A DNA stretch of 64,000 nt from the NCBI GenBank assembly GCA_050084515.1, contig CM114271.1, positions 33,604,001 to 33,668,000 of the forward strand, written 5' to 3'. Of the stretch, positions 8,501 to 55,900 are shown piece after piece (positions within the stretch are counted from its first letter, which is position 1; each line of letters opens with the position of its first letter). Under the pieces are notes generated by a model. That model saw nothing but the letters and a program-made list of their open reading frames with translations, ran no database searches and was not told where the DNA came from. This stretch comes from Blasia pusilla (taxonomy: Eukaryota). The position numbers were made by a program, and so were the translations under genes.

Positions 8501-11500
8501 TTCCATGCACAGGGTCTATCATATTCCACCCATGAATAAGAACTGTCTATGATAACGCGTGCCCCATGTCTATTACATGCCATTAAAATTGAGCATATTT
8601 CACTCTGACTATATGTGAGTCCTGTAGGCACAATGGTGGGGCCAGATATGTACAACCAAGGTTTATGGACAGTCCCCAACAACTCATCCACAGAGTGCCC
8701 TGTGAGCTTGAAATCATCATTAGGTTCTGTGGAAAGCTCTTTCACATTTGCCCTCAGGAATTTCGCAGCAGAGATAAAGGTTGCATTTGAACCTGTAGGA
8801 AAGCATAGAGTGCCTCCTTCTTCCACACAAACCAGCACAAGCTTTGTAAAGAGAGCTATTGCACTGGTGCTCAAAACAAGATCCTTCGAAGAGAAACCAC
8901 AGTTACTTTTGATAAAATTGTGTATCTGTGGTCTTGGGTCCATTTCAGCCTCAGCAATGTTTTGTCGAGCAAATCCTTCAAATATAGCCACTTTAACAAC
9001 AGGTGAAATTGGAAGAGCACACTCTTCGCTATGAAGGTCCAAGATTTTGGTATTTTTTAGTTGACAACTCGATGTTCCTGGTTGACATATTGTTGTGATT
9101 GTGTTCCCGGCAAAGTGAATAAATCCCGATTCCTCATCTTCCTTCATGGGTAACCTCTGAAAGAATTAAAAAATGAACATCCAATCCATAGAGTGAGTGG
9201 CTCCTAATAAGAGACTAAGTTTTAGATCTCAATGGCAGGATAGAAATTGGATCTCCAAGATCAGGACAATCTAAGCCAGAAATTTCCTTTGTGGGCATTA
9301 TCATTATCATCTTGAAGAGTTTGTGACCAATGCATTGAATGAGGAGCTCTCCAAGAAATCAGACTTCAGAATACTGACAATCTCCTCAAATCCTGGATTT
9401 ACTAAAAGAATAGAGCTGTAATTCATGCATCCGTGATCTTTCTAGGAGCTGTTCACTTCGAAGAAAACAGAGATAGATTTAGAACGAGGCAACATACCTG
9501 TATTGTGGTGTGTCGATCAGGAAGTTGAAAGCTCAATAACTCATGAAAAAGGCACCCATAATAATACTGACTGGATAGAGGTGTAGGGCCACAAGTAAGC
9601 TCGCTGGATTTTGCCACGGCAGTCAAAAGATCTTGGTTCTCTGAAATGAGAAAGGCAACTTCCAAATCTGAGTAAACCTGGGAATCCCACAACCACATCA
9701 AAAATTAATCACCGGCAGTCATCTAAGAAACCTTTCAGACTACCACAGTGCCTGCCAGAACCTTACATCACATGAAAAGCAGCCATGGGTGTAAGCCACA
9801 GTGTTGCACTGTGGTTTTGCCAACACTGCAGGTTGTAGCTCCATGAAACTAAATTTGACTCCAGAGCCCAAAAAAATCAAATAGAAGCAGTCAATAAACG
9901 AGATAATGAGAAAGTGACAGCCATGAAAAATTCAAACACAAAACAAGATCTGCCAAAATTGCTAAAGCAATCATTTCTTTTACTGACCTGATTCTTTACA
10001 AGACCACAGATTATTGAGGCGTGAATTGGGAGAGGTCTAGAAGCCATATATTGGAGAACGCCATTAGTACCAGGCAGACTTGAAAGCTCAACGTGATCGG
10101 ATATATCTAAGAAAAGGCGTGCATTGACTTTTGCTGAAGCTTCAAGTAATTGCTCAAAAGCAGTTGACGTCTGCATTTCAAAAGCTGCTAAAGTAGTTAT
10201 TACAATCTGAGGCTTCAAGGTATTTAAAAGCTGTGTTACAAGGTCCGTCCGTTGTGGTGCTTCTATAACTGAGATAGGATCACCATGTACGATGCCTGGT
10301 GAAGTCTTTGCAGTCAAGTTCTCCTGTAGAAGAGACAATATGACGAATTATAAGCTTTATTGTTGCATTCAACTCCCATGGCATTCGTCCGATACTTTCC
10401 ATTTTGTAAAGCAACCCCAAAAGCCATGTGTCTTGACTCACTGAACCAAACTGCAGGCAAACACCCACTTGCAAACTTATTTTTCCAGGTTAGAAGAAAG
10501 TTACACGAGTATTTGACCAGAATGCGCGAACCCAACAATAAAAAAATGCTGGGAGTTTCTAATGCCTTAGGATGCTTAACCAGTACTGGGAAAATATTGC
10601 TCTACAGCAAAATAGGCTGGTGCTCAATCCTCTTGCAAACAAGTATTTATGACGTTGACCAACTTCAATCTCAGGTAATCACACCAGGACAAGAAGAATG
10701 ACATACTTCAGATCGCAAGGTAGTGATCCACTTATTTGGCAGCCATTTTGTGAGACTTGCATCAACAAGAGCAAGCTTTGGTGAAAAGAGACGTAACACA
10801 TTCTCAAGCGCTATGGATCTTGAAGGCAGTATAGCCACACTCTGCATCCAGATACAAAGGACAATTGACGTACGTGAGGAAAAGGCAACAGCAACCACAA
10901 TTAGAATCACATTACCTCAGTTTGCACACTAAGAGAAATAAGGAAGTTAACTGCTATCTTGCTTTGCCTACACTGCTCACAACTCCATAAAAGTACATCC
11001 ACCAAAATGACATAGTCAAGCTCGGATGACAAGATGAAATCATTTGAACATTTTACTACTTTAAAGTACTTACTGCCGGAGTGATAGGTATCCGATGGTA
11101 GTTTCGGAAGAAGCTTGCAATCAGGTCGCGGAATAATGTGTTGCCTGTAGGTAGCTCTAGAGGAAAGTAAGAAAGGCCTGTCAGCATGCTTGCAAGGTGT
11201 GCAAGGAAAGCAATCTTCTCATCAGCCACAGCATCTTCCTTGAATGATAAGTCCAGAGCACTCCGGGTCTCTTCGAAGCCATCACTCAAAAACTTGAAGA
11301 TTGTCTTCACCTGAGAATGACCAAAGAAAGTTGGCAGAACCTTTCAAGTATCCACTCCAATATGACATCGCTGCAAGTCAATTTACATTGAACGGCATCC
11401 ATAATAGGGCATTCAATAAATATTATTTCCTGCTTGCACCTGGTAACCTTCTGGTTACATATCCACAAATGCAATGCAGGCAGAAGAAACTCTGGAAGAG

Positions 11501-23813: not shown

Positions 23814-24364
23814 TGTCGCGATCATCATAACCAAACAACACCAAATAGGCGTCAAACGGAACATCAGAACTCAAGTGGCCTCACGCTATCATGATCGCGT
23901 ATTGGAAAGGCTTTTGGAAGCTCTCTTAGAAAGTTCCAAGAGATGAAATGCGGAACTAAGTTGTACATTTCATGTGCTAGTGGTTGCGACCCTAAAACCT
24001 AGACAAAACGCGAGCCAAGATTTGAGATGAGTTGAGTCTTGGAAGGTTGCCAAAGAGGTGAGAACCAATTTTAGAACACGACTAACGTTTGGGAAATTGG
24101 AGCGTGTTTTGGACCATAACGTTTAGCTAGAAAGTGTGTCCCAAATCTTTCGAGACTTGCTTGCGTTGTAAATTGTGAAACTAGGAAGGTTAAGATTGAT
24201 GAGCGTCCGAGACGAAAACTCGAAAAGTTAGCTCCTTGATTGATCAAAGACCCGACTAACCAAAATGCGTGTTTGAATGCAGATCAACGTTGAAAGCGTG
24301 ACCTACTGAACGCACGCTTCCGCAACAACAAAGATTAACGTTCGAAGAGAGTAAATGCACGACA
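23814..24364 (+). mobile_element. Solo LTR, 551 bp, with 5-bp TSD
   Basis: Termini TGTCGCG...CACGACA with a perfect TSD CATGG at 23809-23813 and 24365-24369. Both ends are homologous to the reverse complement of 54604-55606. Strand indicates relative orientation only. Confidence 0.88.
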
Positions 24365-25649
24365 CATGGGATCCTTCAAATATACCATCTTCGATTATAA
24401 TTTCACTGACTCTAGATGGGTCTTGAAAGGGTCCTTCCTGAAAGTTACAACGTAGAAGTGTCAGAGACAACCCTTGGGAAATAGACAGACTACATTAGGT
24501 TGTTTATTTAAACCCTATCGCAACCAAACGGGGGATACCGATAGAAGTAATGGATGAAATTACATGACCACCAGGCCTTGGACCAATTGGACCTTCCGCG
24601 GCGGACTCTATGGGGACGGGCTCTATGTGGATCATGAGCGAGACAAGATAGGAAAATCTTTGACACCCACTAGAATATATAAAAAACCACTTCCATTCAT
24701 GGAGGTTCTTCCCTGGCAAGTTCCAATTGCAAAGGGAGTTTCCATGGTGCTCCACACCACCAAGCCCAGCCCAAGATTCTGGTGATGCCATGAAACCACT
24801 GGATCCGCTCACAAGCACAGGAGTCTTGGGGTAATGTGAATCCACGAGATCCGCGTGCTTGCCAGGATCGATTGGGCTATGGGGTTGCCCGGGTCGCCGT
24901 CCGGTTGGCGCGTCTCTAGGATCGATGAGAGTGAAGTTGAATCCGCGATTTTCGAACCAAAACTCGCGAATTTTGGACACGGGTTTCTAAATGCGACGCT
25001 AGCCAGGGCTGTAATGGTGATGCTCCAGTCTGCGGATCACGCACAGTGATGCTCCAGTTTGCTGGTCACGCACAGACAGGACTTGCAGACGTTTCGAGGG
25101 CATTTTGATTGCGGTGTGTCGACGGCCATGAGGAACGCCGGATGCCCCTCTGAAAGATAAGGAACTGTAGATCGCTGGTTCCAGCGCTTGCCTTCCACGT
25201 ACCGTTATAGATCGACTCGACTGATCGGCTGCAATGATGGCGATCTCGAGCACATTCTCCGACACTTTCGAGCTGCGCCGGGAAACGATGAGAATGCCAA
25301 GAAGCTGTGCGCAGAGTTGTAAAGGACTGCGATATCCCGTGTCGGAGGTACAATTTTCTTGATTTGCGGGTCTTCTCGAGACTCCATACTACAGTTCTAC
25401 ATGAAACAGTTGGGTGCAAAGTGAAATACGGGAAGCTTTTCCTTCCGATATCCCCGACGGACGTACCTCCGAACCCACGCACATCAATTCTACCTACGGC
25501 GAGACCACCAAGGGCTCGGAGATCCACCGCTTGCTTGAAGTGGAGCTTTAAAGAGGTGGAACTAAAATCGAAATCCTGGTAAGATATACTATACACTATA
25601 ATGCTACACTCTTTCCGTAGAAAAATTGGATTTAAAAAGACGCTCTGAG

Positions 25650-28600
25650 CTAGGTGTCTACGCTTTCCTTCAAGGATGAAGAAACCCACCACCTCTTCTT
25701 GCAGATGAGCAAGCCGTCCGAATCTTCGCGACCTTTGTCTGTCGTATGTTGGGTACATTTCCATCTCATCGCCTTCCCCAAAACATTGGCATTGTCCAAA
25801 AATTGTGTTGTATCCCGGATGATCACATGGCCATTGGGCCGTAAGATCCGGTCCATTTCTAGCATGACTTCTTTCATTTCACATCTGCAGCGCGAGGAAA
25901 ATGAGAAAAACGCAGTGTTGTAAATCTCTCAAGCTACGAGAAGTTTCAAAGATTGCAGCTATATTTCACTTCGCACATTTTGCAGAGACTTCATTCCATT
26001 CTTTCGCACATCGAATGCTTCAGTTTCCATCTACTACATACCTTTGGCTTTCAGCTGTGAAGAGGCCAGCCACATGAAGCAAGTCATATGTTCTTGGATA
26101 GGTCGAAAACGCTTCGCACCTGCGAAATAGGCGATCCAATTCCAGAAGGAGAACTCCAGTTATGCTCCAGAATCGCAATGTCTTCCGAAATTGGATCTAT
26201 ACGACGAGTCAAGAACGCAGACAATAGATTGGACAGCCCCCATGGTCCGGAGAATGCTTGACATTCGTGTTGGACATGACGAATCTTTTGACATCAAGGA
26301 CTGTCTCCCTCCCACAAATTCTCCTCAAGAATGCGTAAGGCTTACCAGTCAGTGACGGTTCCGATCAAGCCCCGATCAAAGATCACTCCTAGAGAGTTCG
26401 TTGCGTACGAAGAGACAACGTTCATCACCCAGACGGGGTCGTCGATCAGTGCCACAGCGAAACTTCCGTAACGAGTGTTCATGTCCATAACGTTTCGGAT
26501 TTTCTCACCGCCGAGTTCCGGGACAAGTATTTTGTAGTGTCTCACACGCTCCTTCCATATTCTCGTGTCTTGATTGAAACCACCAGTGTTGCCTCCCGCA
26601 GTCCATTGCAATCGCTCCGGCGGTAGCGTCAGTCTTTCTGGCCATTTTGGTATCGTGTCCACTGACATCTTCTTGGCCTCCTGGTGTTGAGGAACTATGC
26701 AAGGTCGCATAGGCACATACCTGCACAACGCCTTGGCGCTCTTTTCAGAAAACGTCTCTTTCAAGAGTTGATGCAGTCGGAAGGCGATGGTTGAATTCAT
26801 TGGAGACATTTGCAATTCTCGTGAACGCTGAATTTGTGTGGACTTCTCAGCAGTTCTACGCTCGGGAGTTGTTGCAACTCGTACCGTAAACTAGGGAAAA
26901 GTAGACAACTGGCGTGAAACTTCAACATGAATTGTAAGGAGGACATGTAAGGAGGTTTTCAGGTTAATGAGTTCGGCAATGTGTGTTCGCAAGGAGCCTT
27001 ACCAGGCGGCATCTTCCTCAATGGCGTCATCGCATATTGGTGGATACGTTCCCTCTTCCCTCTGCTCATAGCATGTGTTGTCCAGAGGTTTCTGCCAAAC
27101 TGCAAGATCATCCTTGGCAGCATAGAACTTGTAGCACATGCGATTCAGCAAGTCCTTAATAGCATCGTAGTTGGCCTTCTGTTTCTCCTCCGTGGACTCC
27201 CATCCCTTCCAGTGGACCTCATAATTCACGGGAGGTCCCGAAAGCACCCAAAAACCACCGGGGCGCAGAATACGATCAACTTCAAGCAGGTACACTCCAC
27301 CTGAGAGGACGGGAAGCATGTAGCTGGCAAGTCAGAATCGACCAGAAATATGTTGCAACTTGACCACAGTTCCTGTGAATGACGGATGCCAATTTCACAA
27401 ATGTTGAAGACCACTGCGACTGATCTGCACGAGATCCTAAAGGTCCAATTACAAACTTCAATCCTCAGTATGTCGTCGCTCCGGGACACTACGGGAGCCT
27501 TCTCTCCTGTAAACCTCTTGAAGCTTCACCAACTGTTAGTGAGAGGAACAAGGTCCATAGATTGGAAACAGAAGGGGAACTTGAGATTCTCTGCACTGCA
27601 CTTACCAAACTCTGTCCAAGGAATCAGGCAACGGGAGCAATGCGCTATGTCAAACGCACTAGCAGGGTAAGGCATACGTTGCGTGGCAATTATCCCGAGC
27701 ATGGCTGGAATTCCACGTTCCAAGGCGAATTGCACCTGCGCTTCATGGTTGTCGCGCGGTGCAATGGACATTGTGATAATACCGCGGTCCAAAAGCTCAC
27801 CACCCCAACTAGCCACCTGCAAACATATCCAGAGGAAGAAGGTCAACATGGCTTTCTTAGAAACGTGATGTTTTGCTATTATTGCACGCTGAAGTGCCAA
27901 AAATCTGAACTGACGAAGATAACATCCCTCAGGAACCGGCAAGGATATTTCCTGCTGAAAGATCCGGATATGTGAACATTGACGCTGTGACTTTCACCCG
28001 GATTGTGCTCAGGTAGACGTACTAACGCTTCGTGACGTTTATAGCACATTCCCATCCACCGTAGGAAATTGCTATCCACATATGAGAGTCTTGGAGGTTT
28101 GGAGATCGCCACTTGGTAGTTGAGAGTGAACATCCCTCTACATCTGAAAAATTGCTTCGAATACTCTCCCTGAGCATTTTATGAACCACGAAGAAGGAAA
28201 AGAAAGAGAAAAGAACGTCTTCTGAAGGTTGTGGAAGGCGACGAAAATCCTCTCAACTCACCCCGCATCCAGTATCGATAGCAGTTCTAATGCTACCTTC
28301 CCTCAATCCTGGTATTAGGTCCTCCATTTTGTCGATATACTCGCCAACACCGTTGGGAAACATGGTTCCTCCTCCGGGAAAGATGAACTTGTCTCCCTTT
28401 TTTTTCAACCAGTTTTGATTTGCCTTTTCATTGTTGATCCAATCGTAAGGGACATTTCTGCAATGGTAAGCCACAATCGAATTTCAGCAACAATCCTGAG
28501 AAAACGAATTGAGAATCTGTTGCACTGGAAGAAGAATCGCCTACCACCTGATGTATCTCAGGTCCAGTCGACGGATCAATCGCTCCAGACAAGATCAAGC

Positions 28601-36942: not shown

Positions 36943-38133
36943 ACCAAGGAGGAGTGGGATATTAATGTTACCAAGAGGAGTATAACACTAATGTCCTCCA
37001 CTTCTTCTAGAAACCAATGACCTTACATATATATGTAAGGTCAAACATCCCACTCCTCCGTGTTTTGAAGTGGAGGAGTGAGCAATTTTATTTTCCATCG
37101 ACTACACTCCAACTTGCCAATAATATTTAAACAACGAGACTCAACCACAAGCGACTTGCATTGCTCTTCTATTGACACAATCTGCACTTCACATATTTGG
37201 TACTCCAATATCACCATTGCACATGTTGTGATTTTTTTAACTATTGCAGAATGCGAAAAAAGAGGCTTTTTACAACACTACAAATATCAACATTCATATT
37301 CAACAGTTATAGAGAGGGATTGTCAAAAGTGTAGTTGCTTATTACTACAGAGTGCACAAAGAGGAGGCTTTGTTCAGAGATAGTGCATCCTCTATCTGCA
37401 TAGCACATACATGCTAACTAATGCATGAATGAGAATTTTTCTTAGAGTGCTACATTTTCAATAAGAGTGGGAAAGAGAAAAGGAAATTTAAGTATGAGAG
37501 GATAAGAGAGATAAGGATAAATTTTCAACATAGAGTCGTACATCTTTAGGATGGGAAGTTTGATAAAGAAAAAATTTGAAGGTTTAACTTTCAAGAAAAG
37601 GGGAAGAAAGATACAATTTATTTTTTCAATAGAAGAGGGAAAAAGACAAAGGAATAATTTTTTTTCAACAAGGGAAGACTTATGAAGAATTTTTTAAGTC
37701 CTTTGTGTAGGAGTAATGTAGAATTAGAGGCTCTCTCTCTTTCTCTGTGTTTGTTTGTTGGTCTTGCGGGCAAGCTCTCTAGTACTATGACAACAAGGAG
37801 TGGCTCATGAAATGGGACATCTCAATTGATGACCTACCCATGGTCATCAACTAGGATCTGGCCAAACAACAACAAAGCAATTACATCTCCACCAAAGGCT
37901 TTGGGAGACTAGGGGGAATGCATCTCACAAAAATGGAGAAAGAATGAGGTGCTACCAGACCCTCATGGCAGATCCGTGCAACAAGCCTCTTACATCTTTG
38001 CCACCATTCCCACTAACTTACATCATACATTAGTGAGATTTAGATGTGGCTCAACTGCCCTTGAGATTAAGAAAGAAAATTCTTACAGAACAAAAGAGAG
38101 GCTATATTATTTAGATTTTGCAACTCGGGGCTC

Positions 38134-38501
38134 TATCATGACCATACGGATTATGTCGTAGAGTATAGTGTGCTAGTAGAGGCCATACCTTATGTAGGGC
38201 CGTAGTATCTAGGTAGAGATGCGGTTTCATACATAGGGTTGAGGGTTACTCAATTGAGGGTGACTTTTCCAGTAGGGCCCGCTCTTAGGTTGGAGGATAT
38301 AGTGTGGAGTGCACTCAAAGAACAGTTAGTTCTTTGAGTTGAGCCTGTTGCATTGGGAGTTAGCCTTGGTAGTGAGTAGAGCTCTTGGCTATGGTGGTTC
38401 TCGCAAGCTTCGACCTGGATTCTCCCATCGTGGAGTGGGTTTGGCTCAATTGTATGTGATTCTATACGTGTTTTATGATAGTAGGTCTTTCACGGATTTC
38501 A
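38134..38501 (+). repeat. Terminal repeat A1 (5' LTR-like segment, 368 bp)
   Basis: About 95-96% identical to 47451-47816 (about 16 substitutions and one 2-bp indel by manual count). Contains TATA-like gatatag and an 11-bp hairpin at 38313-38339. Confidence 0.92.
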
Positions 38502-38513
38502 CTCAAAGAACTA
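38501..38513 (+). promoter_or_regulatory. Candidate self-priming primer-binding site
   Basis: ACTCAAAGAACTA at the end of A1 is the exact reverse complement of TAGTTCTTTGAGT at 38327-38339 inside A1. No TGG-starting tRNA PBS is present at this position. Confidence 0.65.
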
Positions 38514-39978
38514 GAGTAGATTGATGGTAGCTTTGATTGTGGATAAGTAGGATCTGGTTAGGGCTGATTGTGTACTCAGCCGTGGATGTTCGTGGCTTGT
38601 GGCCTATGTTGGAGTTGGGAATCTGGTGCGTGGTTGGTTAGGAAAGAAGTGCCTTACTGAGAGCTTTCCAACGCGCTTTAGATCGCCGGATTTTTTCAAG
38701 GGAGTTGGAAGTTATCAAGGATGGAAGATTCTGGTTCGTGTTCGACGGTTTTCTGATGTGGAGAGCTTGGAGTGCGGAAGCTCTGTTGAAGTTCATCCAG
38801 ATCGGGTGAGAGTTACTTGTATTGTGATCTCATGTGAAGCTTGTGGAGCGTTGCGGATTTTTGTGTGCATGAATCTAGGCGGAGCGTTGTCGGATTTGCG
38901 ATTCTGGAGGTGTATGGACAACAAGTTTGTCTGATTTTAAGCTCGGAGTACAGAGCTTGATTGTAGCTAATTTTTTGTGGAGAGATAGCTATGGTGGTCA
39001 ATTAAATTCTGGTTGAAATAGATTCAATTTTTGTTGAGGATTTGTGGAGTAATTGCTGATCAAAATTTGACGGAGTAGCTCAAGGTGTGGCTATGGTAAA
39101 CAGCAGATCGGAGGGGCTAGTTGGTTGGTGACTCCTCCGTTGTTGGAGACGCCTATCCCATTGGGGGCGCCCTGGTTGGGCCTCTCTCCATAGCGAAGCA
39201 TGGCGAACGGGGCATGTCTCGAGCATTTTGAGGCTTCGAGGCAACTCGTGGTAGCTCGGGGCGAGTGGGCGTGAGAGGTGGAGTAAGGAGCAAGGAGCAA
39301 GCAAGCAAGCATGCTTGCTTGGGCGTGAGGCAGTTTTTGCAGGATTTGTGATTTTGAGTGTTGCAAAAGTGATCACCCATCTTTGGGCTATTCTACCTGG
39401 AAGACGCTTAACTGCTGAGTTCTTAACTTTGCCAGTGTACACACTAGTGTAGCTCATTTGGTGCTGTTCGGAGATGTGTTAGGCGCTTTATGCATCTCAG
39501 GTTTTTGGTTGATGGACCTCTAGCGCATAGTACGATGTAGCCTCTCCATGCAGGTGATATTTTCAGGTGCTGCGAGTCCGACTAGCACGTCATCGACCCG
39601 CGGCGGAGTAGCTATTGCGTTAAAATTTTGTAGTGGGTTCTGTGGATTCAAGGGGCGCCACGTTTGGTGGATTGTATTACCTTGATTTCCATATACGATT
39701 GGATTGTCGTTGGACTTCTTGTGTTTGGATCCCCTCCATTATTGCTTCTTGCTTGCGCGTCCATTGTTAGGGTTGACGCTGATTTCCAGAGTAGTGTTAC
39801 TCCTGTGTGCTACCGGTAGTGAGGCTCGAGTGATGACCAGTAGACCGTGGGAGGCTTCTTGTGGTGATGACATGTTAAGTTGCCTACACCCATAGCTAGT
39901 AGAGCTAGAATGGTATAGCGACATCGACGTCACTTGGTTACTTAGTGGTGGTAATTTGGTGGTGGTGCGGCATCGGCG

Positions 39979-41425
39979 TTGGTCATCACAAAGTTGTCTG
40001 GTGGTCTGGTTGGGGACCATGGTGCGGACAGTGGTGGTTTCATACGGAGTGGATTGAGGTATCGGCTACCTTTTCCACGCCGGCGGTTGATGAAAGAGGG
40101 AGGCGAGGGTGTTCCAAATACCGAGTCTTCTACGTTGTTATCAAGTGTTGCAGCTCCATTGATTTGGGACATGGATGGGATATATGGGGCCATGAAGGGC
40201 CCACGACGATACTCGGGTGCAGTGGGCACCATTGAGTTGGAGGACTTCATGCAGGAGTTTGATACGTGGTGTGATATGCAGATGTTGTGGAACGCCACGT
40301 TGTTTACACCCTTCTTGGCTTGGAAGGGGTTGTTTCAGCACTTGGAGGGACCACCCATGGATGATTACCATGAGTTTAGGAAGGACCATGTTGTTGAGAT
40401 TAAGGCGTGGAGACAATATTGGTCTCCAGGATATGTGTCTATCATCCATGGTGGTATTGGTAGTAGTGCTTCTACTATGCCAGCCAGCCCAACGTTGAGT
40501 GGTACGAGTACGAGCCGTAGTGGGGGTACCAGTGGAGTTACCCATGGAGGTACCAATGGGGGTACTAGTGGAGGTACTAGTGCCCCACCATCGTTCAGCC
40601 CGATTACAGAGTTCTTCAAGAGGTTGAAGAAGAACTATCAGGGAGTGAAGACAGAGAAGTTGAGGAGTCTTCAGGAATTTGAGCGAAAGACAGGTGAGAG
40701 TCTTCGTGAGGCATACACTCGAATGCGACGCTTGATTTCAGTTACCCAGGGTATGACTGAGGCTTAGGCAATCCAGTTTTGGTATGGGATCTTGAACAGA
40801 GAATTGCGCCGTAGGCTACGTGATGCTACTCTTATGAGTGATGATTCACCCATATTGACCCATGTGTTTGCTCTATCTGAGAAGATTGAGCTTAACATGG
40901 TGAAGGAGAGAGTGGTGACATCCGCATTCAGTAGGGATAAAACTACTACTTCTCGTGTTCAGCAGACCCACCTCACAGTCTCGTAGTAGTGGTGGTGGTA
41001 GTAGTAGTGGGAGTCGTGGGGGGTACACACGACCTCAGTCAGGTCCTAGAGGGACACTTGCGCAGAGACCATTGCCTTCATTTGCTGCCTTGCAGCAAGG
41101 ACAATCATGTTGGACATGTGGAGGTGATCATGTTAGGAGGTTTTGTCCCCAAGAGGATGGGAGGCGGACTTTGGAGGATGGGCCTCAATCGGCCCCAACT
41201 CAGTGTGATCATTGTGGGAGACCAGGTCATCCTCGAGAGCGTTGCTTTGATCTTCATCCAGAGTTGAGATCAGGCCGTGGCCGTGGTGGAGTAGCTCCGA
41301 GAGGCCGAGGTGGTAGAGGTGGTAGGGGTGGTAGAGGTGGACCAGTGGTTGGAGAGCCTACGGTGGCCACCCCTACCACTACGACAGAGTCAGCTATGGC
41401 TGCCAGGATTGAGCAGTTGGAGTAG
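39979..41425 (+). pseudogene. gag: Retrotransposon gag: capsid-like region, two zinc knuckles, RGG tract; contains a stop and a frameshift
   Basis: YSGAVGTIELEDFMQEFDTWCD and GESLREAYTRM; knuckles CWTCGGDHVRRFC (41108-41146) and CDHCGRPGHPRERC (41204-41245); RGRGGRGGRGGRGG. TAG at 40765 and a frameshift near 40980. The true start codon is uncertain. Confidence 0.85.
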
Positions 41426-42112
41426 AAGTTGGCTACTATGGCTGGTATCCAACATAGATCAAGTTCGGGAGCAGGGGCTTCCACCTCTTCTGGAGGGGAT
41501 GACCTCTCTTATATGGCAAGTGCAGCACAGGTTGAGGCATCAGCTGCAGTTACGAGAGGAGCCACTTGAGCGTCAGAGCCACGTGGTGCTACTGTGGAGT
41601 TGGACCTATAGAGGGGTGAGGTTGGGAGGCAGGCTAGGCTTCCCCAATCATTCTTGTTGTCTGAGGTGCTTAGGACTCCATCCATGGTTCCTACGCAGCC
41701 TATTGAGCCTACAGTGGGGATTGAGGCATCTACATCGCGTGTAGTAGACACGGATGGAGCATCCAGTGCAGTATTGTGGATGGCAACTTTAGTGTTGGGA
41801 TCCCCATTGTTTTCGGCCACGGAGCTGATGGCTTTAGGAGTTGACTTAGCTCCTGTATTTCAGCTAGCAGCCACGTTGTGTGAACGTGGGGGTGTTACTA
41901 CTACATGTGCTAAGGTGGATGAGGGTGTTGCGGTGGAGCGACCCTCTATGTGAGGTGTAGCATTGAGTACAAGTGCTACTTGGCAAGCAACAACAGCGAA
42001 GATGGATGCATTACATGTCCGGCCAGCCATTGATCGTGAGAGGCTTACACCTGGTGTATGTATGTTGGACAACCGGAGTGGGATATTCCGATTGGTGAGT
42101 CCTATAGGATAG

Positions 42113-42480
42113 GTGTATAGACCAGATAGAGTCTTGTTAGACTTTGGTACCCAACCTTTGATGTTGGGAAAGGCGGCATGTATTGGTTTGGGTATTTGGA
42201 GGTCAGAGCTTGAGCCTTGCCCATTCCAGATTCAAACATCACTTGGAGGAGCCAATGATAGGTCTCAATTCATGACACGGGAGAAGTTTTCTGTACAATT
42301 GAGACCGGATCATGCGACTAATAGCTCTCGGTTGGGAGTACCTACAATGGTCACATCAGTCGAGTTGTATGATGTACTAGTTGGAGGAGCAGTATTGTAC
42401 CCGATGGGTTTTCAGATGAACTATTGGACTGAGACAACGTCTTATAGACCTGGTTGGCAGTCGGGGGATGGACGTATGAG
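42113..42480 (+). pseudogene. Retroviral-type aspartic protease, degenerate
   Basis: RVLLDFGTQPLML (D-S/T-G site probably mutated to DFG) and C-terminal YDVLVGGAVL motif. Confidence 0.65.
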
Positions 42481-42868
42481 CAAGGTTCATGTGAGATTTA
42501 TTTATGGGGCTCGACCAAGAGGGTCTTCCCCAACGGTGGTAGCATTTGTGGCTGGTTTTAGTGGAGTAGTCACTTGGCCAGGAGACTTTTTGGAGGGTAA
42601 TCTTTCTGCTATGGATTCTCCTGTGCATGAGGAGGTAGAGGAGGTCCCTAGTTTTGCAACAGTGGCATCCTCATCGTTGGATGTGCCACTTTGGAGTTTA
42701 GGCGGTGCACTACGGCAAGAGGCTGATCGCCTAGAGCAGGAGGCTTGGTGTGAGGCTGTTATACCTCACGAGGAAGAGGAGGCCCCACACCGGACTCCTA
42801 CTTCTGGTCTAGTTGGGTTATCCCCTTTGGATACTACACCCATTGTATGGCAGTATCCGCCGGAGGGC

Positions 42869-43812
42869 ATTTGTGTGTTAGATCTCTTTGGTGGGATTAG
42901 CTCTGGTTTGGCTGCAGTGTTGCAAACCGGTATTCATGTGCGGAGATACGTGTATGTGGAGCGAGATGAGATGGCCCAGAGAGTCTCATCTCAACATATT
43001 GGTCAGTTGATGCGGAGATATCATAAGTTGTTGCCGCCATTAGCTATTCGTGGGTACTAGCGTGCTTTGCCGTCACACATTGCATTGTTGGGGGCGCAGG
43101 ACCTTGAGAGGGTTGGTCCTGTGGATTTGGTGATTGCTGGATGGCCATGTCAGGGTCATACACCTGCTGGTCGTGGTGAGGGATTACACGACCCTAGGTC
43201 TCGATTATTTTGGGAGATATTACGGGTGTTACGACATCTTCAGGTTCATCATGCACGTGCTCCAGCTTACATTCTGGAGAATATTCCATTGTTGGGTGAC
43301 ACTCGGACCCGGATGATGGCGAGTGTTCATGAGGTGCGGTCTTGGATTGGACCAGGGGTGTTGTTGGATGCAGCGCGAGTTGGCTCACGTGCACATCGTC
43401 CATGCTTGTGGTGGACAAACTTGTTGCCTAGGGAGGTTCTACGTCGAGCATATAATGCAGTGCAACGAGATCCTTGCCTTACAGTGGATAGTATCTTGGA
43501 TACTGGGAGACTTTCTTAGGTGGTGAGGGTTATTGATCGGTCATCCATGGTAGTGGTGAACCGTGTGGGCCAGCCTAGGATGGCACTACCCACATTTGTG
43601 AGTTTTTCCTCGTCACATGCCTATAGGGAAGGTGGTCCCGGGCTTGTATGGGATTCTCATGTGCGATAGTTGGTGGAGCCTAACGCTGATGAGAGAGAGC
43701 GTGGGATGGGATTTGCTATTGGTGTGACAGCGGTTGCTTCCATTTTTGAGGCTTCACGACGTCATGTGTTGGGTCAGGCCATGGACCTGAATTGTTTGAC
43801 TTGGATTTTGAG
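42869..43812 (+). pseudogene. DNMT3-like cytosine-5 DNA methyltransferase domain embedded in pol, with three in-frame TAG stops
   Basis: One reading frame holds motif I VLDLFGGI, II YVYVE, IV GPVDLVIAGWPCQG (catalytic PC at 43145-43150), V GLHDPRSRLFWE, VI YILENI, VIII LLDAARVGSRAHRPCLWWTNL, IX ERERGMGFAIGVT and X RRHVLGQAMD. Confidence 0.92.
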
Positions 43813-44067
43813 TCTTGGTATGGCCGAGCAGCGTCAACTTTGGACTATGTCTGTGGGTCATCCACCCCTTGTGATGAGCTCGATGGCTACTGGGACGGTA
43901 GAGGCATCGGTTGGGGCGAGGAGAATAGTATTTTGCATCCTTGGAGTAAATGGGATGTAATGGCTGGGCATGTGGATTTGGTTGCTTATGCTGGTGGAGG
44001 AGTTATTTTCTCAGATGATGGTGTAGCTAAGGGTGTACCATCTTGTGAGGGGGTTGCGTAGGAGCCA

Positions 44068-45545
44068 ATGGCGTCGTCCTCTCCCTCTACTGTGCTAGTG
44101 GAGGAGACTTGGGAGCCATTACTTGGGCCCAAGCTTATGGGAGGTGAGAAACGACGCTTGACACAGTTCCTACGTGCTTATAGGAGTTGTTTTGCCTTTA
44201 GTATGAAGGAGTTGGGTGCTTTGGTTGGACCCGGTATACGGATCGATTTGGCTAGTGATATGCCAATATTTCGTCATCCCTACCGATATTGTGATATGGA
44301 GAGGGACCTGATTCAGAGTAGGACATTGGACCTTTTGGAGGCTGGATTAGTGGAGTTGTCGCATGGAGAGTATGCATCAGCCACTCTCATGCCTGCTAAA
44401 AGGGATGTGCATGGCAACTACACGGATAGGCGAATGTGTGGAGATTACCGTCCTATCAATCGGCAAACCAAGGCCGATAGGTATGCAATGCCTACACTTG
44501 AGGAGATCTTTGATGTGGTGGGACAGGCAAAGATTTTCAGTACTTTGGATCTTCGGGCAGGATACCATGAGTTGCCGATTGGGGAGAGTGACAAGGCCAT
44601 GACAACATTTTGGGGTGTCAACTCTCATGGCAAGGATTGTTTCTACCAGTGGAAATTCTTACCCTTTGGATTGAAGAATGCACCTGCCGAGTTTCACAGA
44701 GTGATGGACAAGATCCTAGCAAGGTTGGATTTTGTTCGGTGTTACATTGATGATATCTTGGTGTTCACTAACACGGTGGAGGAGCATCAGATACATTTGT
44801 AGATTGTGTTTGAGCGGTTGAAAGCTTATGGTCTACGTTTGCATCCACGAAAGTGTAAGTTCTTCTATGAGGATGTTGAGTACTTGGGTCATGTGATCTA
44901 TCTAGGTGGTTTGGGAGTTCAGCAAGCAAAGGTGGAGGCTATTGCACTTATTCCACGTCCGGTAGATGTGAGTAGAGTTTTGGCTTTCATGGGATTGGCG
45001 AACTACTATCGGACGTATGTGAAGGGATTTAGTGCTATGGCAAAGCCTTTGAACCAATTGCTGAAATCAGATCAAGAGTGGCACTGGGTAGATGATCAGG
45101 AGAGAGCTTTTGTGGAGCTCAAGGCCCAGTTGGTGGCGGCGCCTATCTTGAGGAGACCTATCAGAGGGCGCCCATTTTAGTTACACACTGATTGGAGTAG
45201 GTTGGGACTTGGAGCGGTGTTGACACAACATGATGATGAGCACATGGAGTTTGTGGTGGTCTATGCAAGTTGTTCGGATAATGCAGCGGAGTCGCGCTAT
45301 AGTTCATATGAGGAGAGTGCTTGGCAGTAGTGTGGGCTGTGGCATACTTTAGGTGTTACTTGTTTGGCACACAGTTTACCCTTGTTACTGATCCCTAGCC
45401 GCTCAAGTGGTTGATGGAGTCTGACAAGCTTACAGGGAAGCTTGCACGGTGGGCTCTTATCTTACAAGAGTATGACCTCCAGTGATACATAGACCTGGAA
45501 TTGCCAACCTTGATGCTGATGGGTTGAGTAGGAACCCATGTACTA
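44068..45545 (+). pseudogene. pol: Ty3/gypsy reverse transcriptase and RNase H
   Basis: RMCGDYRPIN, FSTLDLRAGYHEL, LPFGLKNAPAEF, CYIDDILVF, KCKFFYEDVEYLGH, FMGLANYYR, LHTDWSRLGLGAVL, CLAVVWAV, FTLVTD, NLDADGLSR. Stops at 44800 and 45178 and a frameshift near 45313. Confidence 0.95.
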
Positions 45546-45903
45546 GCCAAGAGGATGCAACTAGGGCTAGATGGCATGGCAAGGTTGATGAGGAGATGGT
45601 GCCAGGTTGGCATGCATCCGCCTTTTTATGTTGGTTAGGGGTGGACTCTAGTATGGAGGACCACATGACATCTTACTCTAGTTAGAGGGTAGATGGCAGC
45701 CTTTAGATCCTAAGGTTGGAGATGGTGGTACGGATCAGCGTGATATTCATGATGATGCGTTGGTGTTGGAGTTCCTACGGACCAGTAGGGTGCCAAGCAT
45801 AGTGAGTGCCAAGGAGCGAGACCGTGTTCTTCAACGTGCTAAGAGGTATTGATTGGAGGGAACATATATTCTCCGTGTGTGGGAGGATGGTAGAGTATGA
45901 GTA

Positions 45904-47169
45904 GTGCCGCATTTGGTTCAGAGAGAGCGCTTTGTGCGACAAGCCCATGAGGAGTTGGGACATTTTGGGGTAAAGCGTACGTATAGCTTACTCCTTTGTC
46001 AATATTGGTGGCGTGGCATGCATACTCAGGTGCATCAGTTGGTGTCACGTTGTATGGTTTGTGACCGGGTGAGGGCATCATTCAATGCCCCTACACCACA
46101 GTTACACCCCTTGTCTATTATGGGGTTGGGTTACCGTTGGAGTGTGGACTTTACGGGACCGTCACCGTTGACTATACGACATCATCGATATGTGTTGGTG
46201 ATGGTGGAGCACTTCTCCAAGTGGATTGAGTTGGTGGCATTACCTGACAAGGCAAGTGAGGGAACGACATATGCGTTTCTTGGTAGAGTGCTTAGTCATT
46301 TTGGTGCACCAGCTGAAGTGCTGACCGACCAGGGTACAGAGTTTCAGGGTGAGTTTCAAGTCTTGTGTGACAAGGCGTTGATTGATCATCGGACCACGTC
46401 TCGAGATCATCCACAGGCGGATGGTTTGGCTGAGCGTGTGGTTCAGATGGTGAAGAGGGCATTGCGCAAGTATGGCCTACAGAAGGGGCATCTTGGAGAC
46501 TCGGATATTCAGTTGCCATGGTTAGCCATGGGGTATAGGTTCAATCGCCAAGCATCCTTGGCTTCCTTCTCACCTTATTTTCTGTTATACGGCCGAGATC
46601 CAGCCTTGCCAACAACAATTCTTTGGGAGTCTAGTAAGGTGGTGAACCTTGATGACCCAAAGATGTGGATGAGAGTGTGTTCTCAGCGGGTAGAGCTCTT
46701 TTGGAGAGTTATGCCAACAGCCTTTGAGAATCTTGCCATTGCTCAACACAAGGATACGTTGCGGTATGCAACCATTCGGGGTGGAGGTTATCGATCATTG
46801 ATTTGTAGGTTCCATGTGGGGGACTATGTCTATTTGCAGCAAATTGGACCGACAATGTTGGATGTGACGGCAGGCCGCACTATTTTACGAGTGCGCGAGG
46901 TGTTAGCTTCTGGAGTTCTCATGTTGGAGGGTCATGATGGAGTTGTTTGGAAGGATCATGTGCGTAATTGTGTGCCATATCATCTTCCAAATGTGGATGG
47001 TAGTGTTGACCCAAGCTTAGCCATGATACGTGCTAGCTTGAGGTCTGCTGGTAACGTAGCCCGTATGTTGGTGTATGATCGGTGTTCTAGGGGTTGGCAC
47101 ATGATGTGTTTGACTCCACGTATGGATGTTGTTCCTACTGGAAGGTGGGTTTGTCCTCGATGTACTTAG
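45904..47169 (+). pseudogene. DDE integrase (HHCC plus rve core) with C-terminal PHD finger
   Basis: HEELGHFG...CMVC; WSVDFTGP, VLTDQGTEF, HPQADGLAERVVQMVK; C-terminal MLVYDRCSRGWHMMCLTPRMDVVPTGRWVCPRC. Confidence 0.92.
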
Positions 47170-47329
47170 GAGAGGTAGATGACTTGATCTTTGCATGATA
47201 TGGATTACAGATAGGCGACTAACGATGGGGCAACCTAGCACCCGGCCTTCTGATTCGTGCACCCAAGAAGGTGTATAGCATGTAGTAGATGTATAGGGCT
47301 ACCTGGGAGTTAGAGGGACCTAATCGCCA

Positions 47330-47343
47330 GTTAGGGGGGCGAG
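47330..47343 (+). promoter_or_regulatory. Polypurine tract
   Basis: gttaggggggcgag directly abutting repeat B1 (agttgtggtac). Confidence 0.65.
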
Positions 47344-47923
47344 TTGTGGTACACTTGTGTTGGTGGATGCTCTCATCTATGTTATGTATGTATGTGAGTA
47401 TGGTATGCCAGCGATGTATGTTGTATGACGATGTGGATTCGCACGAGAGCTATCATGACCATACGGATTATGTCGTAGAGTATAGTGTGCTAGTAGAGGC
47501 CATACCTTATGTAGGGCCGTAGTGTCTAGGTAGAGATGCGGTTTTACATAGGATTGGGGATTACTCAGTTGAGGGTGACTTTTCGAGTGGGGCCTGCTCT
47601 TAGGTTGGAGGATATAGTATGGAGTGCACTCAAAGAACAATTAGTTCTTTGAGTTGAGCCTGTTGCGTTGGGAGCTAGCCTTGGTAGTGAGTAGAGCTCT
47701 TGGCTATGGTGGTTCCCGCAAGCTTCGACCTGGATTCTCCCATCGTGGAGTGGGTTTGGCTCGATTGTATGTGATTCTATGCGTGTTTTATGACAGTAGG
47801 TCTTTCACGGATTTCAAGTTGTGGTACACTTGTGTTTGTGGATGCTCTCATCTATGTTATGTATGTATGTGAGTATGGTATGTCAACGATGCATGTTGTA
47901 TGACGATATGGATTCGTACGACA
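47342..47923 (+). repeat. 3' repeat block B1(107 bp)-gc-A2(366 bp)-B2(107 bp)
   Basis: B1 47342-47448 and B2 47817-47923 are near-identical; A2 47451-47816 matches A1. Confidence 0.92.
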
Positions 47924-48870
47924 ACTCATTGATGATGAACATCATTACCTCTTCTATTGTACCTTTCACAACCACATTAGACTTGACTTCTAAGATCTCT
48001 TTGCTTACCTCACCCTCATGGTCTCCAAATTCATGGCTAGGCAGAATCACATTTAGATTGTAAAATTCTTAAATTGTTATGTGAATACTTGAGAAAATCA
48101 CTAGGCACAAAGGACCTCTGAAGTCCTTGCTGGTGCTTTGCTGGTTCTGTTCTCAAATTGCTGTTATTTTTGCCAAACTAAGTCCCATAGTCTTATGGGG
48201 TCCCTGTGGACAATTAATCTATTCATTCATTCATTTTCTCTTTCTTTCTTTCTTTCTTTGGAGGGATAGAAACATATGGGTCCTCTTTGAAGACTTTAGG
48301 AGGGCTCTTTAGTTCCTACCTAGTTAAAAAGAAGAGAGGAAAGGAGTCCATTTTTTATTTGATGTACGTATGGGGTCTCTCATGGAGAAATGGAGGAGGG
48401 GAGGGGAAGGTAAGACCTTGTCCATTTATTCCTCCTAAGAGTAAATTTACAAAAATTATAGAAACCTAGAATGCGTGGGTTGGTATAACAAAGAAATTAG
48501 GAAGGTTGAGTGATCCTTTTTTTTTTTCTCTCTTGAAAAGGGAGGTAATAAGTACGATGGATATCCTCTCTCTTGAGAGTGAGGCTTGAGAAGTTACCCT
48601 TGCCCTAATAAATGGTCATAAAAGTGGTAGTATTACATATCATGAGATCAAGATCAAAATTCTACATAGGATAAGATGACTTAAATCAAAATTCCTCAGT
48701 GTGGGAGAGAAGTTGATTAGAATACTAGACCTTGCCCACATAATGAAGACTCGGATGCACACGTTCCTTGAAATATCTTATCCTTGAATGCTCTTTGGCT
48801 CATACCATCTAGGGTATCTGCCAAGATTGATACGAATTTGTCACATCTTATTTTGAGGTAGGTATAGTTC

Positions 48871-52974: not shown

Positions 52975-55900
52975 AGATTGATTCTGAATGCAAACAAGCA
53001 AGGGAAAAATCAGTAGATAAATTTTTGGATACCCAAAGTCGGCTTATTATGACGAGTCTTTACAAATACTTCATGAAATCTAAAAAACGAGTTTTCTTGC
53101 GGCGGAAGCAAGAGTCTTTGACAAGGGAACTGCATGAGGACCCCAAATCATTTTGGAGACGATTAGTAATACGGTCTTCAAAACCTACTCTTCATCCCAA
53201 GTTTTTGATATTTTTTGCTGAAAAACTTTATTTCTTCCCCGATGCTAATCTATGCAACGTTGTGAAAGAATACTTGGCAGAGATATGATTCAACTAAGAA
53301 GATTAGCAAATGGTAAATGTGAGGATTTGGATGGTCTTTCTATTGAACTTTTCAAGTGGGGAGGAGATTGTATTAGACCGATCCTCACCAAAGTATTGGG
53401 TGATGCTCCTATCTATGGTTTTCTTTCAACCTAGTCGCTACGGGAGATTGTTCCTATTCACAAATCAGGAAGGAAGGACTTGGTGACAAACTATCGTACT
53501 ATCATGGTGGGTAGTGTTTTTGCCAAGCTGTTTGGGAAATCGGTGGAGTCAAAGTTGAGCGCATGGACAGAGTCTTTCCAAAAGAGAGCACGGGTCCAAG
53601 CTGGTTTTTGCCCAACATACAACACCATCGAACGTATCTTGGCCTTGCGTATTTTATGGGAGAAATCTAAGGGCAATGGGAAAGCTTTGTTTTGCGGTTT
53701 CATCGATTTCAAGAAAGTTTTTGATACTGTACCTCGTAAGCTCTTATGGGATACGCTGCAAGTCATTTGAGTACCACCAAATCTCCTAGCAATCGTGGCC
53801 ACGTTATAGCATTCCGTTCGGGCCAAGATCAAAGGTTCACAAACTCAAGAGATCTTGAGTACCATTGGAGTCATTCAAGGTTGCTCTCTCTCCCCTATTA
53901 TATTTGGAGTTTTCATAGATGATATCGAAAAATGGTTGGAGGAATGTGATAGTGAAGGTGCCAAGCTTGGGGACTTTGTTATCAAAGCTCTATTGTATGC
54001 AGATGATATCATATTACTAGCACGGGATGACATTAGTTTACAAAAACACCTCAACACTTTGGCACGATTTTGTACCCAAAATCAGATGGAGGTTAATATG
54101 GAGAAGTCTAAGGTCATTATAGTGGGTACTAGATCCAAGTTCTCCTTCTACAAAGGTCTACAATTTGAACAAGTGAAGAGTTACAAATATCTAGGCATTG
54201 ATTTCTCTCATGACTATAGTTGGGCACTGTGCGTGCAAAAAAGAGTAGGAGCTGGTTACAAAGCTCTGTATTCATTTTTAAATCGGTGTAGAAGAGCTCA
54301 TCTTATGTCTTGGGATCTTAGGAAGTTCTTATTTAAGAGCTTAGTGTTTTCGGTGGTCTTATATGGCACCCAAGTTTGGGGCCCTAGTTGTAAGAAGACA
54401 AGTTGGGAGCGCATGGAGAGGGTGCAAAAGATCTTTCTACAAGAAGAATTGGGTGTAAGAAACCAAACTTATGCTATTCTTCTTGCGGAAACATGTTGTC
54501 TTTCTCTAAAGATTGAAGCTCTTTACTTGACCATCACTTATATCGCAAGGGTGAGATCTCTTGATGTTTCTCGCCTCCCTCATCAAGCTTTGCGAGCCAC
54601 AGGTGTCGCGCCCCTACTCTCCTTGAACGTCAATCTTTAGTGTTGCGGAAGCGTACGTTCAGTAGGACATGATCTCATCACTGATCTGCACCCAAACACG
54701 CACTCTCATTAGTCGGGTCCGGGGCAACCAGCGTTCTAACCCATCGAGTTCTCAACTCGGCGTCTCATCAAGCTTAACCTTCCTTAATTCCTAGTTTCCA
54801 AAACATGGCAAGTCCTTCAAGACTTGGAACAAACTTCCTGATTAGTCTAGGAACCTAAAATGGCACTTGTGCGCCTAGCGATCCCAATTGTTAAACGGAC
54901 CTCGTGCGAGTTCCAAACCGAGACCCAAGTAATTGAGTCGCGGGGTGAAATCCAAGAGGGATGTCTAAAATCTCCTCCGTAGACTTGGTTCAGGTTTTCC
55001 AACCCAACCCCAAACTCTCGATCCGTTCCATGCCCTTGAGCAGCCCCATGGCGCCCAAAGTGGGGGTTCTAGTTCCAAGCACTCTCAGAGACCTTCCCCC
55101 TTACTAGTACTTTTGGGGTTCTCCAATAAACCCCCCCCCCTGGAAAAGGAGGGTCGGGCCCTTCATTGTGGCCCTCAACCCGACTCTACTTACAGTCGTT
55201 TCTGGGTTGTTTCTCGGCCGCTGCTAATGTGTTTGCTGAGATCTTTAGTGCGTTTGAATCGGCTTTCCATAAGCCTTCCAACGCACCCTTGTTTAATCCA
55301 AACTAATCTTGGAACTAAAATTTATGGTTATAAATACAGTCGGAAACTCTCAAATGCTAGTGGCGTTCCAAATCTGGATTCTTCCTTTGGCAACCCACTT
55401 TCTAGACTCGACTCCTTTCAAGTCTTATACCGTGTTTGGTCCAGGTTTCTTCGTCGCCACCACAACATTTGAAACGCGAAGCCTCGATTGAGTCTCGTCT
55501 CTTGTCTCTTCTTCGAGACTACTCCAACGCGCAAACCATCTTAGCATGAGCCCACTAATGTTCCGATGTTCCGCTTGGCACTCGTTTGGTCATGAGGGTC
55601 GCGACAACAGGTTCTATAAGATGGATAGCGAATGTGGTGACTTGATCTTCAAAGTGGAATCTGGCAGAACGCAATTGGGACTTGAAACTAATGGCACTCC
55701 GCGAACATCTACAGAAGCAATTTCTCAACATTATTTAGCAGCCCGGGTACAAAAATGGAGTTTTATCAATTTCATGTTAATCTAATGCTTGTCTATTGTG
55801 AACAAGGATATCTACTTGCGGGGATCTCCACGTTCTTTTATCATATTATCGTACGACATAGAACAGGGTCTCATAGGCTAGGAATTGAGGAAGGACAATG

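Follow-up and report, generated by a model that had tools for sequence, protein, structure and literature searches.

Structure of the element in the window

The window, the whole 64,000-nucleotide stretch of Blasia pusilla DNA analysed here, contains at 38134-47923 a Ty3/gypsy retrotransposon with gag, a C5 methyltransferase, reverse transcriptase (RT), RNase H, an HHCC-DDE integrase and a PHD finger (Table 1). This copy is decayed, and its coding regions are interrupted by stops. The gag region gave only a weak PF03732 match (E 0.014, below the cut-off), the frames of the leader gave no Pfam match, and we take a motif between gag and the methyltransferase to mark a probable aspartic protease remnant. 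When the integrase was aligned with 23 relatives, the H-H-C-C residues and E178 were kept in all 23, D83 in 22 and D143 in 21, and its best match of solved structure was Ty3 Gag-Pol (E 2e-33). The integrase carries no chromodomain and has a PHD finger in its place. Named relatives of the element proteins come from Calypogeia, Marchantia, Riccia, Sphagnum and Klebsormidium; those of the methyltransferase belong to Marchantia, Calypogeia, Sphagnum and Riccia, and two of them are fused to RT.

Two direct repeats, A and B, bound the element. A1 and A2 are identical at 350 of 366 aligned bases, and B1 and B2 at 99 of 106. The 3' end reads polypurine tract (PPT), B1, GC (47449-47450), A2, an extra A (47817) and B2, and B is absent in front of A1. 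Both the A-only 5' end and, apart from the extra A, this 3' order had been claimed in a preliminary description of the locus, and the repeats were confirmed in position. The same description had noted an HHCC-DDE integrase and no tyrosine recombinase, which agrees with our search: none of the 98 stop-to-stop frames of at least 45 aa in this decayed copy matched a tyrosine recombinase (E 0.05), shorter frames lying outside the scan.

Table 1 Coordinates of the features of the element, in window positions.
Feature	Position	Strand	Basis
Left target-site duplication, GCTC	38130..38133	+	sequence, family test of target-site duplications
A1, integrated 5' end; begins with right half of att site	38134..38501	+	
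Self-primer site, complement of primer-binding site; predicted transcript start	38328..38338	+	covariation in second family
Primer-binding site CTCAAAGAACTA, abutting A1	38502..38513	+	
Non-coding leader	38514..39954	+	conserved among copies
Gag region, stop-interrupted	39955..41425	+	Cys/His knuckles and RGG tract in translation
Probable aspartic protease remnant	42113..42500	+	motif; no Pfam match
C5 cytosine methyltransferase domain, stop-interrupted, approximate limits	42850..43850	+	PF00145, E 3.2e-9
Reverse transcriptase and RNase H, with stops and a frameshift	44062..45480	+	PF00078, PF17919, PF17917
HHCC-DDE integrase, PHD finger at C-terminus	45901..47169	+	PF17921, PF00665, PF00628
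Polypurine tract, terminating ...GGGGGGCGA	47329..47342	+	
B1, 5' part of U3, terminating in left att half	47343..47448	+	
Internal att site, two substitutions relative to most copies	47442..47457	+	
A2	47451..47816	+	
A2/B2 joint, RT-defined right end to RT-defined left end, one extra A	47812..47823	+	
B2, integrated 3' end, terminating CA	47818..47923	+	
Right target-site duplication, ACTC	47924..47927	+	

Outside the element, the window holds a separate reverse-transcriptase remnant at 53810-54640 (PF00078), probably LINE-like, with an inverted partial copy near 24166-24368. Host gene exons lie at 8203-9165 and 26342-27993, encoding an aminotransferase of class I/II and a plant SAM-dependent methyltransferase (PF03141).

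Split repeats are the family norm

The window lies in a 390 Mb genome (G000), in which the family queries returned 2034-2598 first-look candidates. Among 5' loci found there with a query blind to B, B preceded A in 0 of 30; the first base was T in all 28 anchored 5' loci, and TG in 26 of these. The 3' loci of the same genome, retrieved with the internal region only, read B-A-B in 27 of 30 cases and were interrupted in 3. An exact-pattern search of the genome found 920 ends of A followed by the primer-binding site (PBS), only four of them with B-att in front, a ratio that is approximate since the two patterns are unequal in strictness. Three of these four candidates are 3' ends retaining leader and one is an A-B-A end (L320), and the flank-B-A-PBS end of an ordinary LTR occurs in none of them. 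The family thus lacks two complete direct LTRs at its integrated ends, and the split-repeat A...B-A-B layout is its norm. By protein lineage the element is Ty3/gypsy; it is neither a PAT/Ngaro element nor a canonical paired-LTR element.

The same arrangement extends beyond this family. A second family in the same genome, with a different A, showed BAB at 24 of 30 loci and has the same att site. In metagenome loci from other hosts the att site and the layout are again the same, with perfect target-site duplications (TSDs) in L217, L223 and L231, and the att site is kept down to relatives at 63% integrase identity (L256, L258).

The second family (L104:4860-5633; L151-L180) is older, and its B differs in the 5' part and is similar in the 3' part; it has its own PBS/self-primer pair. 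Its query gave 5689 first-look candidates, a count that may take in other families. Among 53 classified metagenome loci, 21 B/flank ends were given no weight, as they may reflect collapse in assembly and count some loci more than once. The integrase profile found no relatives in viral contigs.

Integrated ends and the att palindrome

Integrated copies of the family run from TGTCATG to CACGACA between 4-bp target duplications. At the internal B/A site most copies read CACGACA-GC-TGTCATG, which contains the palindrome GACA-GC-TGTC, and the site of the window copy, CACGAGA-GC-TATCATG, is a mutated version of it. The GC spacer is missing at both integrated ends, as had been pointed out for the window copy.

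For the analysis of TSDs, upstream DNA was taken from 20 of the 30 best copies; an anchored 5' end was absent in 9 of the 20 stretches, and of the 11 anchored starts one (L098) was set aside, since a local duplication gives its A-B and L010 a common 3' flank. Eleven pairs remained when the window copy was counted; 10 of them agreed at three or all four bases, where shuffling gave a mean of 1.55, and one (L108) had no TSD. The preliminary description had the window copy flanked by GCTC and ACTC; across the family, target duplications likewise lie just before A and just after the last B. The TG...CA termini and 4-6 bp TSD of Ty3/gypsy elements are both present, and the ends of inserted copies are attributed to integrase. 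A cut of the att site with a 2-nt stagger would yield two recessed CA-3' ends. Such ends are the form that DDE integrases transfer.

Several further variants were recorded around the att site. Solo elements (L118-L149; 8 solos against 26 BAB) consist of A-B with 4-bp TSDs, matching in at least three bases in 7 of 8 and perfectly in 6. Small indels cluster at the internal att site: within 20 bp there are 6 events, in 4 of 65 copies (L066, L067, L081, L120), compared with 8 in the other 227 bp. Pattern-picked att variants among L262-L290 carried indels in 7 of 11, a CC spacer being common to four, and a normal start was seen in all six att-variant copies whose 5' end was found. The indels may be scars of re-cutting, or may come from mixing of co-packaged genomes. 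Three loci (L104:8498-8827, L105:3152-3379 and L322) contain inverted, fold-back pieces of A.

A different 3' end, PPT-B followed directly by flank, was seen in 19 of 30 loci examined out of 59 pattern matches (L261-L287 with L302-L318). These A...B copies make up roughly a tenth of 3' ends, and their TSDs match in at least three of four bases in 9 of 10 paired cases. They fit insertion of a 1-LTR circle, or alternatively recombination between B1 and B2; 1-LTR circles are described as predominant in other LTR elements (bioRxiv 10.1101/2022.09.25.509424). No age difference was found between A...B and BA copies (19 against 10 copies, p 0.89), so the age test cannot separate the two origins.

Priming, reverse-transcription ends and the A/B joint

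The PBS is not tRNA-like and is complementary to 38328-38338 inside A. In the second family the PBS is different, and a matching complement was present in 4 of 4 loci; this covariation supports self-priming, with a transcript start predicted in A. A TATA-like GGATATAG lies at 38295, about 33 nt before that predicted start. Tf2 is described as self-priming, and Tcn1 is predicted to be so (PMC5341516, PMC6317226). Since the PPT precedes B1 and the PBS follows A, the RT-defined LTR is B+A, and A1 would correspond to the 3' part of U3 plus R and U5. A B+A LTR had been proposed in the preliminary description, together with integrated ends lying inside the LTR at the internal att site, and the positions of the PBS, the PPT and the ends agree with it.

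Subfamily variants are shared between the two repeats of a copy. B1 and B2 shared 42 variants within copies, compared with 8.3 +/- 3.1 after shuffling (51 of 58 copies), and A1 and A2 shared 103 compared with 36.6 and 40 compared with 14.8 (16 of 18 pairs), and no fixed differences were found between the B1 and B2 pools or between the A1 and A2 pools. Together these results indicate that B2 is remade from the template of B1.

Transcripts were sought in three raw-read RNA runs labelled organism A, whose species may differ from that of the genome. Sense transcripts cross PPT-B-att-A, and reads running from the end of A into B numbered 1, 0 and 5 in the three runs. The predicted transcript start was unconfirmed by these RNA data: in one of the three runs molecule starts clustered, at 47610 and not at 47643. 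The predicted 5' RNA does not fold in an unusual way as a whole (z -0.52), and its one informative part is the pairing with the PBS.

Two observations concern the same region. At window position 47610, 26 RNA molecules start at a TATA-like site, in run X5 only. A hairpin in A (38313-38338), also present in L223, includes another 10-mer that resembles the PBS, immediately upstream of the primer site; in the RNA, this hairpin could hide the primer sequence of the 3' repeat.

The joint between A and B is usually TTTCA/GTTG, and the window copy is a +1 variant. Among the first 100 of 966 listed joints, 93 were exact, 4 were longer and 3 shorter by one base. Nine joints carried 2-30 extra bases, which were the first 11 PBS bases in 2, 2-4 PBS-like bases in 3, filler in 1 and local duplications in 3, and at four 3' ends a leader of 94-160 nt was retained after A2. 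Most joints can be read with an overlap of 1-2 nt, with an A shared in both families, so blunt and micro-homologous joining are indistinguishable. Since B2 shares the variants of B1 in its own copy and remnants of the PBS or leader stand at rare joints, the joint newly unites two cDNA ends, the right one defined by the PBS and the left one by the PPT, as had been suggested from the window copy.

Proposed route of integration

As the best overall explanation, we consider it probable that the element is a self-primed member of Ty3/gypsy in which the site recognised by the integrase has shifted into U3 by about 108 bp. The route is reconstructed entirely from inserted copies. Ordinary reverse transcription would produce a linear BA-internal-BA DNA. 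The DDE integrase would then cut the att site of the PBS-proximal LTR with a 2-nt stagger, and the two recessed CA-3' ends would resemble processed retroviral ends. With the RT-defined ends joined head to tail, the freed B piece would move to the right and give A-internal-B-GC-A-B. The PBS-proximal att site would probably be chosen because that LTR should be double-stranded right after the second strand transfer, and the other only once the plus strand is finished.

The steps could follow one another in three orders. Joining might come first, as a circle with a 2-LTR junction that is then cut, and to this order we give a chance slightly short of even. RT might instead finish the plus strand and jump from its end to the left end, where the nick at att would halt it, which is a tentative possibility. 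Cutting and insertion might also precede a later host repair of both free ends, a doubtful order. All three yield the same insert, and the sequence cannot separate them.

Patterns of the genome gave 431 matches to PPT-B-att-A and 1 to joint-B-att-A, and that single match is a BABAB expansion. The best reading of these counts would be that only the PBS-proximal att is opened. A closed, symmetric 2-LTR circle that could be opened at one att site or the other is very improbable on the same grounds: it would hold two identical att sites, so ABA...B is expected as often as A...BAB, whereas A...BAB leads by 431 to 1, and ABA was seen in 0 of 30 5' loci and in one of 920 A-PBS ends. The model could be kept only if ABA...B insertions were lost several hundred times faster than BAB ones. 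The features of the joint do resemble circle junctions, and there is one ABA 5' end (L320). The preliminary description had proposed integration through a 2-LTR circle opened inside the LTR, either as the normal route of the family or as a rare event; the opening of the internal att site as the normal route is retained, and the plain closed circle is not.

An unlikely alternative is a linear route without end joining, in which an extra template switch of RT adds B after U5 and integrase trims the left flap. The high precision of the joints and their 1-2 nt overlaps fit polymerase jumping, and the polarity would be explained. However, this account overlaps the RT-jump order described above and requires a stop at att where integrase has not cut, which no evidence supports, and the A...B copies with TSDs fit cutting at the internal att. 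Replication as in PAT/Ngaro elements, from a whole-element RNA with an internal B-A splint and with A1, B2 and the joint inherited rather than remade, is quite improbable. It shares the repeat order (PMC4157794), a few RNA reads cross the A end into B, and copies with an altered att can have a normal 5' end. Against it, the A1/A2 and B1/B2 pools show no fixed differences, the PBS, self-primer and PPT are conserved and co-vary, PBS and leader remnants stand at the joint, and the element has 4-bp TSDs and no recombinase that we could find. That an ordinary LTR element was rearranged, left as the remnant of a tandem or misassembled here is a reading we rejected as virtually certain to be wrong; nothing beyond the age of the window copy speaks for it, and the layout with its TSDs recurs in independent copies by the hundred, in the second family and in other hosts. 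None of the four candidates with B in front of A-PBS has the ordinary flank-B-A-PBS end. The preliminary description had named a recurring A...BAB layout with TSDs as support for a family-wide mechanism, and this is what the genomic copies show.

An altered internal att common to four copies stands against the relocated att site: the sole 5' end found among these copies is normal, which simple copying of U3 does not predict. With slightly more confidence than doubt, we extend the relocated-site explanation to a streptophyte Gypsy lineage, from charophyte algae to liverworts and mosses, in which a molecule with a 2-LTR junction would be obligatory for integration through the relocated U3 palindrome of one LTR only. 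In this lineage circles that are otherwise dead ends, including the 1-LTR circle (A...B copies), would insert, and the retained att may occasionally be re-cut.

The accepted rule for LTR elements, as described in PMC11054761, is integration of linear DNA through the ends that RT has made. Here the priming ends and the integration ends are separated in hundreds of copies, two families and more than one host, and the family shows that a tyrosine recombinase is not needed for split direct repeats to arise. The family offers a natural system for cleavage of an internal palindrome by a DDE integrase. It also implies that programs searching for LTR pairs miss a large transposon class in bryophyte genomes. 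Relatives in Marchantia are named from protein matches.

Comparison with known systems

Compared with Ty3/gypsy elements (Metaviridae), the family has the same RT-RH-INT order, DDE integrase, TG...CA ends, short TSD and PPT, and like Tf1/Tf2- and Tcn1-type elements it has a putative self-primer, a complement of the PBS that lies at a predicted transcript start (PMC6317226, PMC5341516). It differs from them in having no paired full LTRs, in integrated ends that are not the RT-defined ends, and in a PHD finger and DNMT that replace the chromodomain.

Split direct repeats are described as a mark of tyrosine-recombinase elements, and PAT, TOC, Kangaroo and Ngaro share the A1-B1-A2-B2 order (PMC4157794). 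Unlike these, the present family has a DDE integrase, a 4-bp TSD, a PBS and a PPT, and no recombinase was found in the window copy. To our knowledge, PAT/Ngaro elements have no DDE integrase and no TSD.

The 2-LTR circle precursor model of Panganiban and Temin (1984) is described as abandoned for retroviruses (PMC11054761), and retroviral integrases (HIV-1, spumavirus) can cut palindromic 2-LTR junctions (PMC4372172; PMC1905944). In both that reaction and the one proposed here, a palindromic CA-spacer-TG site between two LTR halves would be opened by integrase. In retroviruses, according to these sources, the main precursor is linear and it is the end-to-end joint itself that is cut, whereas in this family a separate internal palindrome with a 2-nt spacer would be cut, the joint survives and the layout is the rule. 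Junctions of the IS3/IS30/IS21 type likewise consist of abutted inverted ends with a 2-3 bp spacer and are opened by a DDE enzyme. Those elements are DNA transposons, and their junction is made by the transposase and is not carried inside a repeat.

The closest published case is KnitGypsy-Dnmt3 of Klebsormidium nitens, for which the legend of Fig. 4c of de Mendoza et al. 2018 gives DIRS-type repeats with Gypsy domains; Fig. 1e of the same paper draws such repeats as A-coding-B-A-B (PMC5890265). A DNMT within a Gypsy Pol and the DIRS-type repeat order are likenesses to our family, whereas an att site, TSD, priming and mechanism are absent from the description, and 'target site' has no occurrence in the main text (PMC5890265). 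Klebsormidium integrases are 51-52% identical to that of the window copy, KnitGypsy itself being compared by description only, and none of the 57 DNMT matches is a named Klebsormidium protein. A literature search, with subscription journals, Repbase and theses outside its scope, found no description of this integration route. The layout itself is already in print (PMC5890265), and what the present family adds is the att palindrome, the TSDs, the putative self-priming, the joint remnants and the apparently one-sided use of att.
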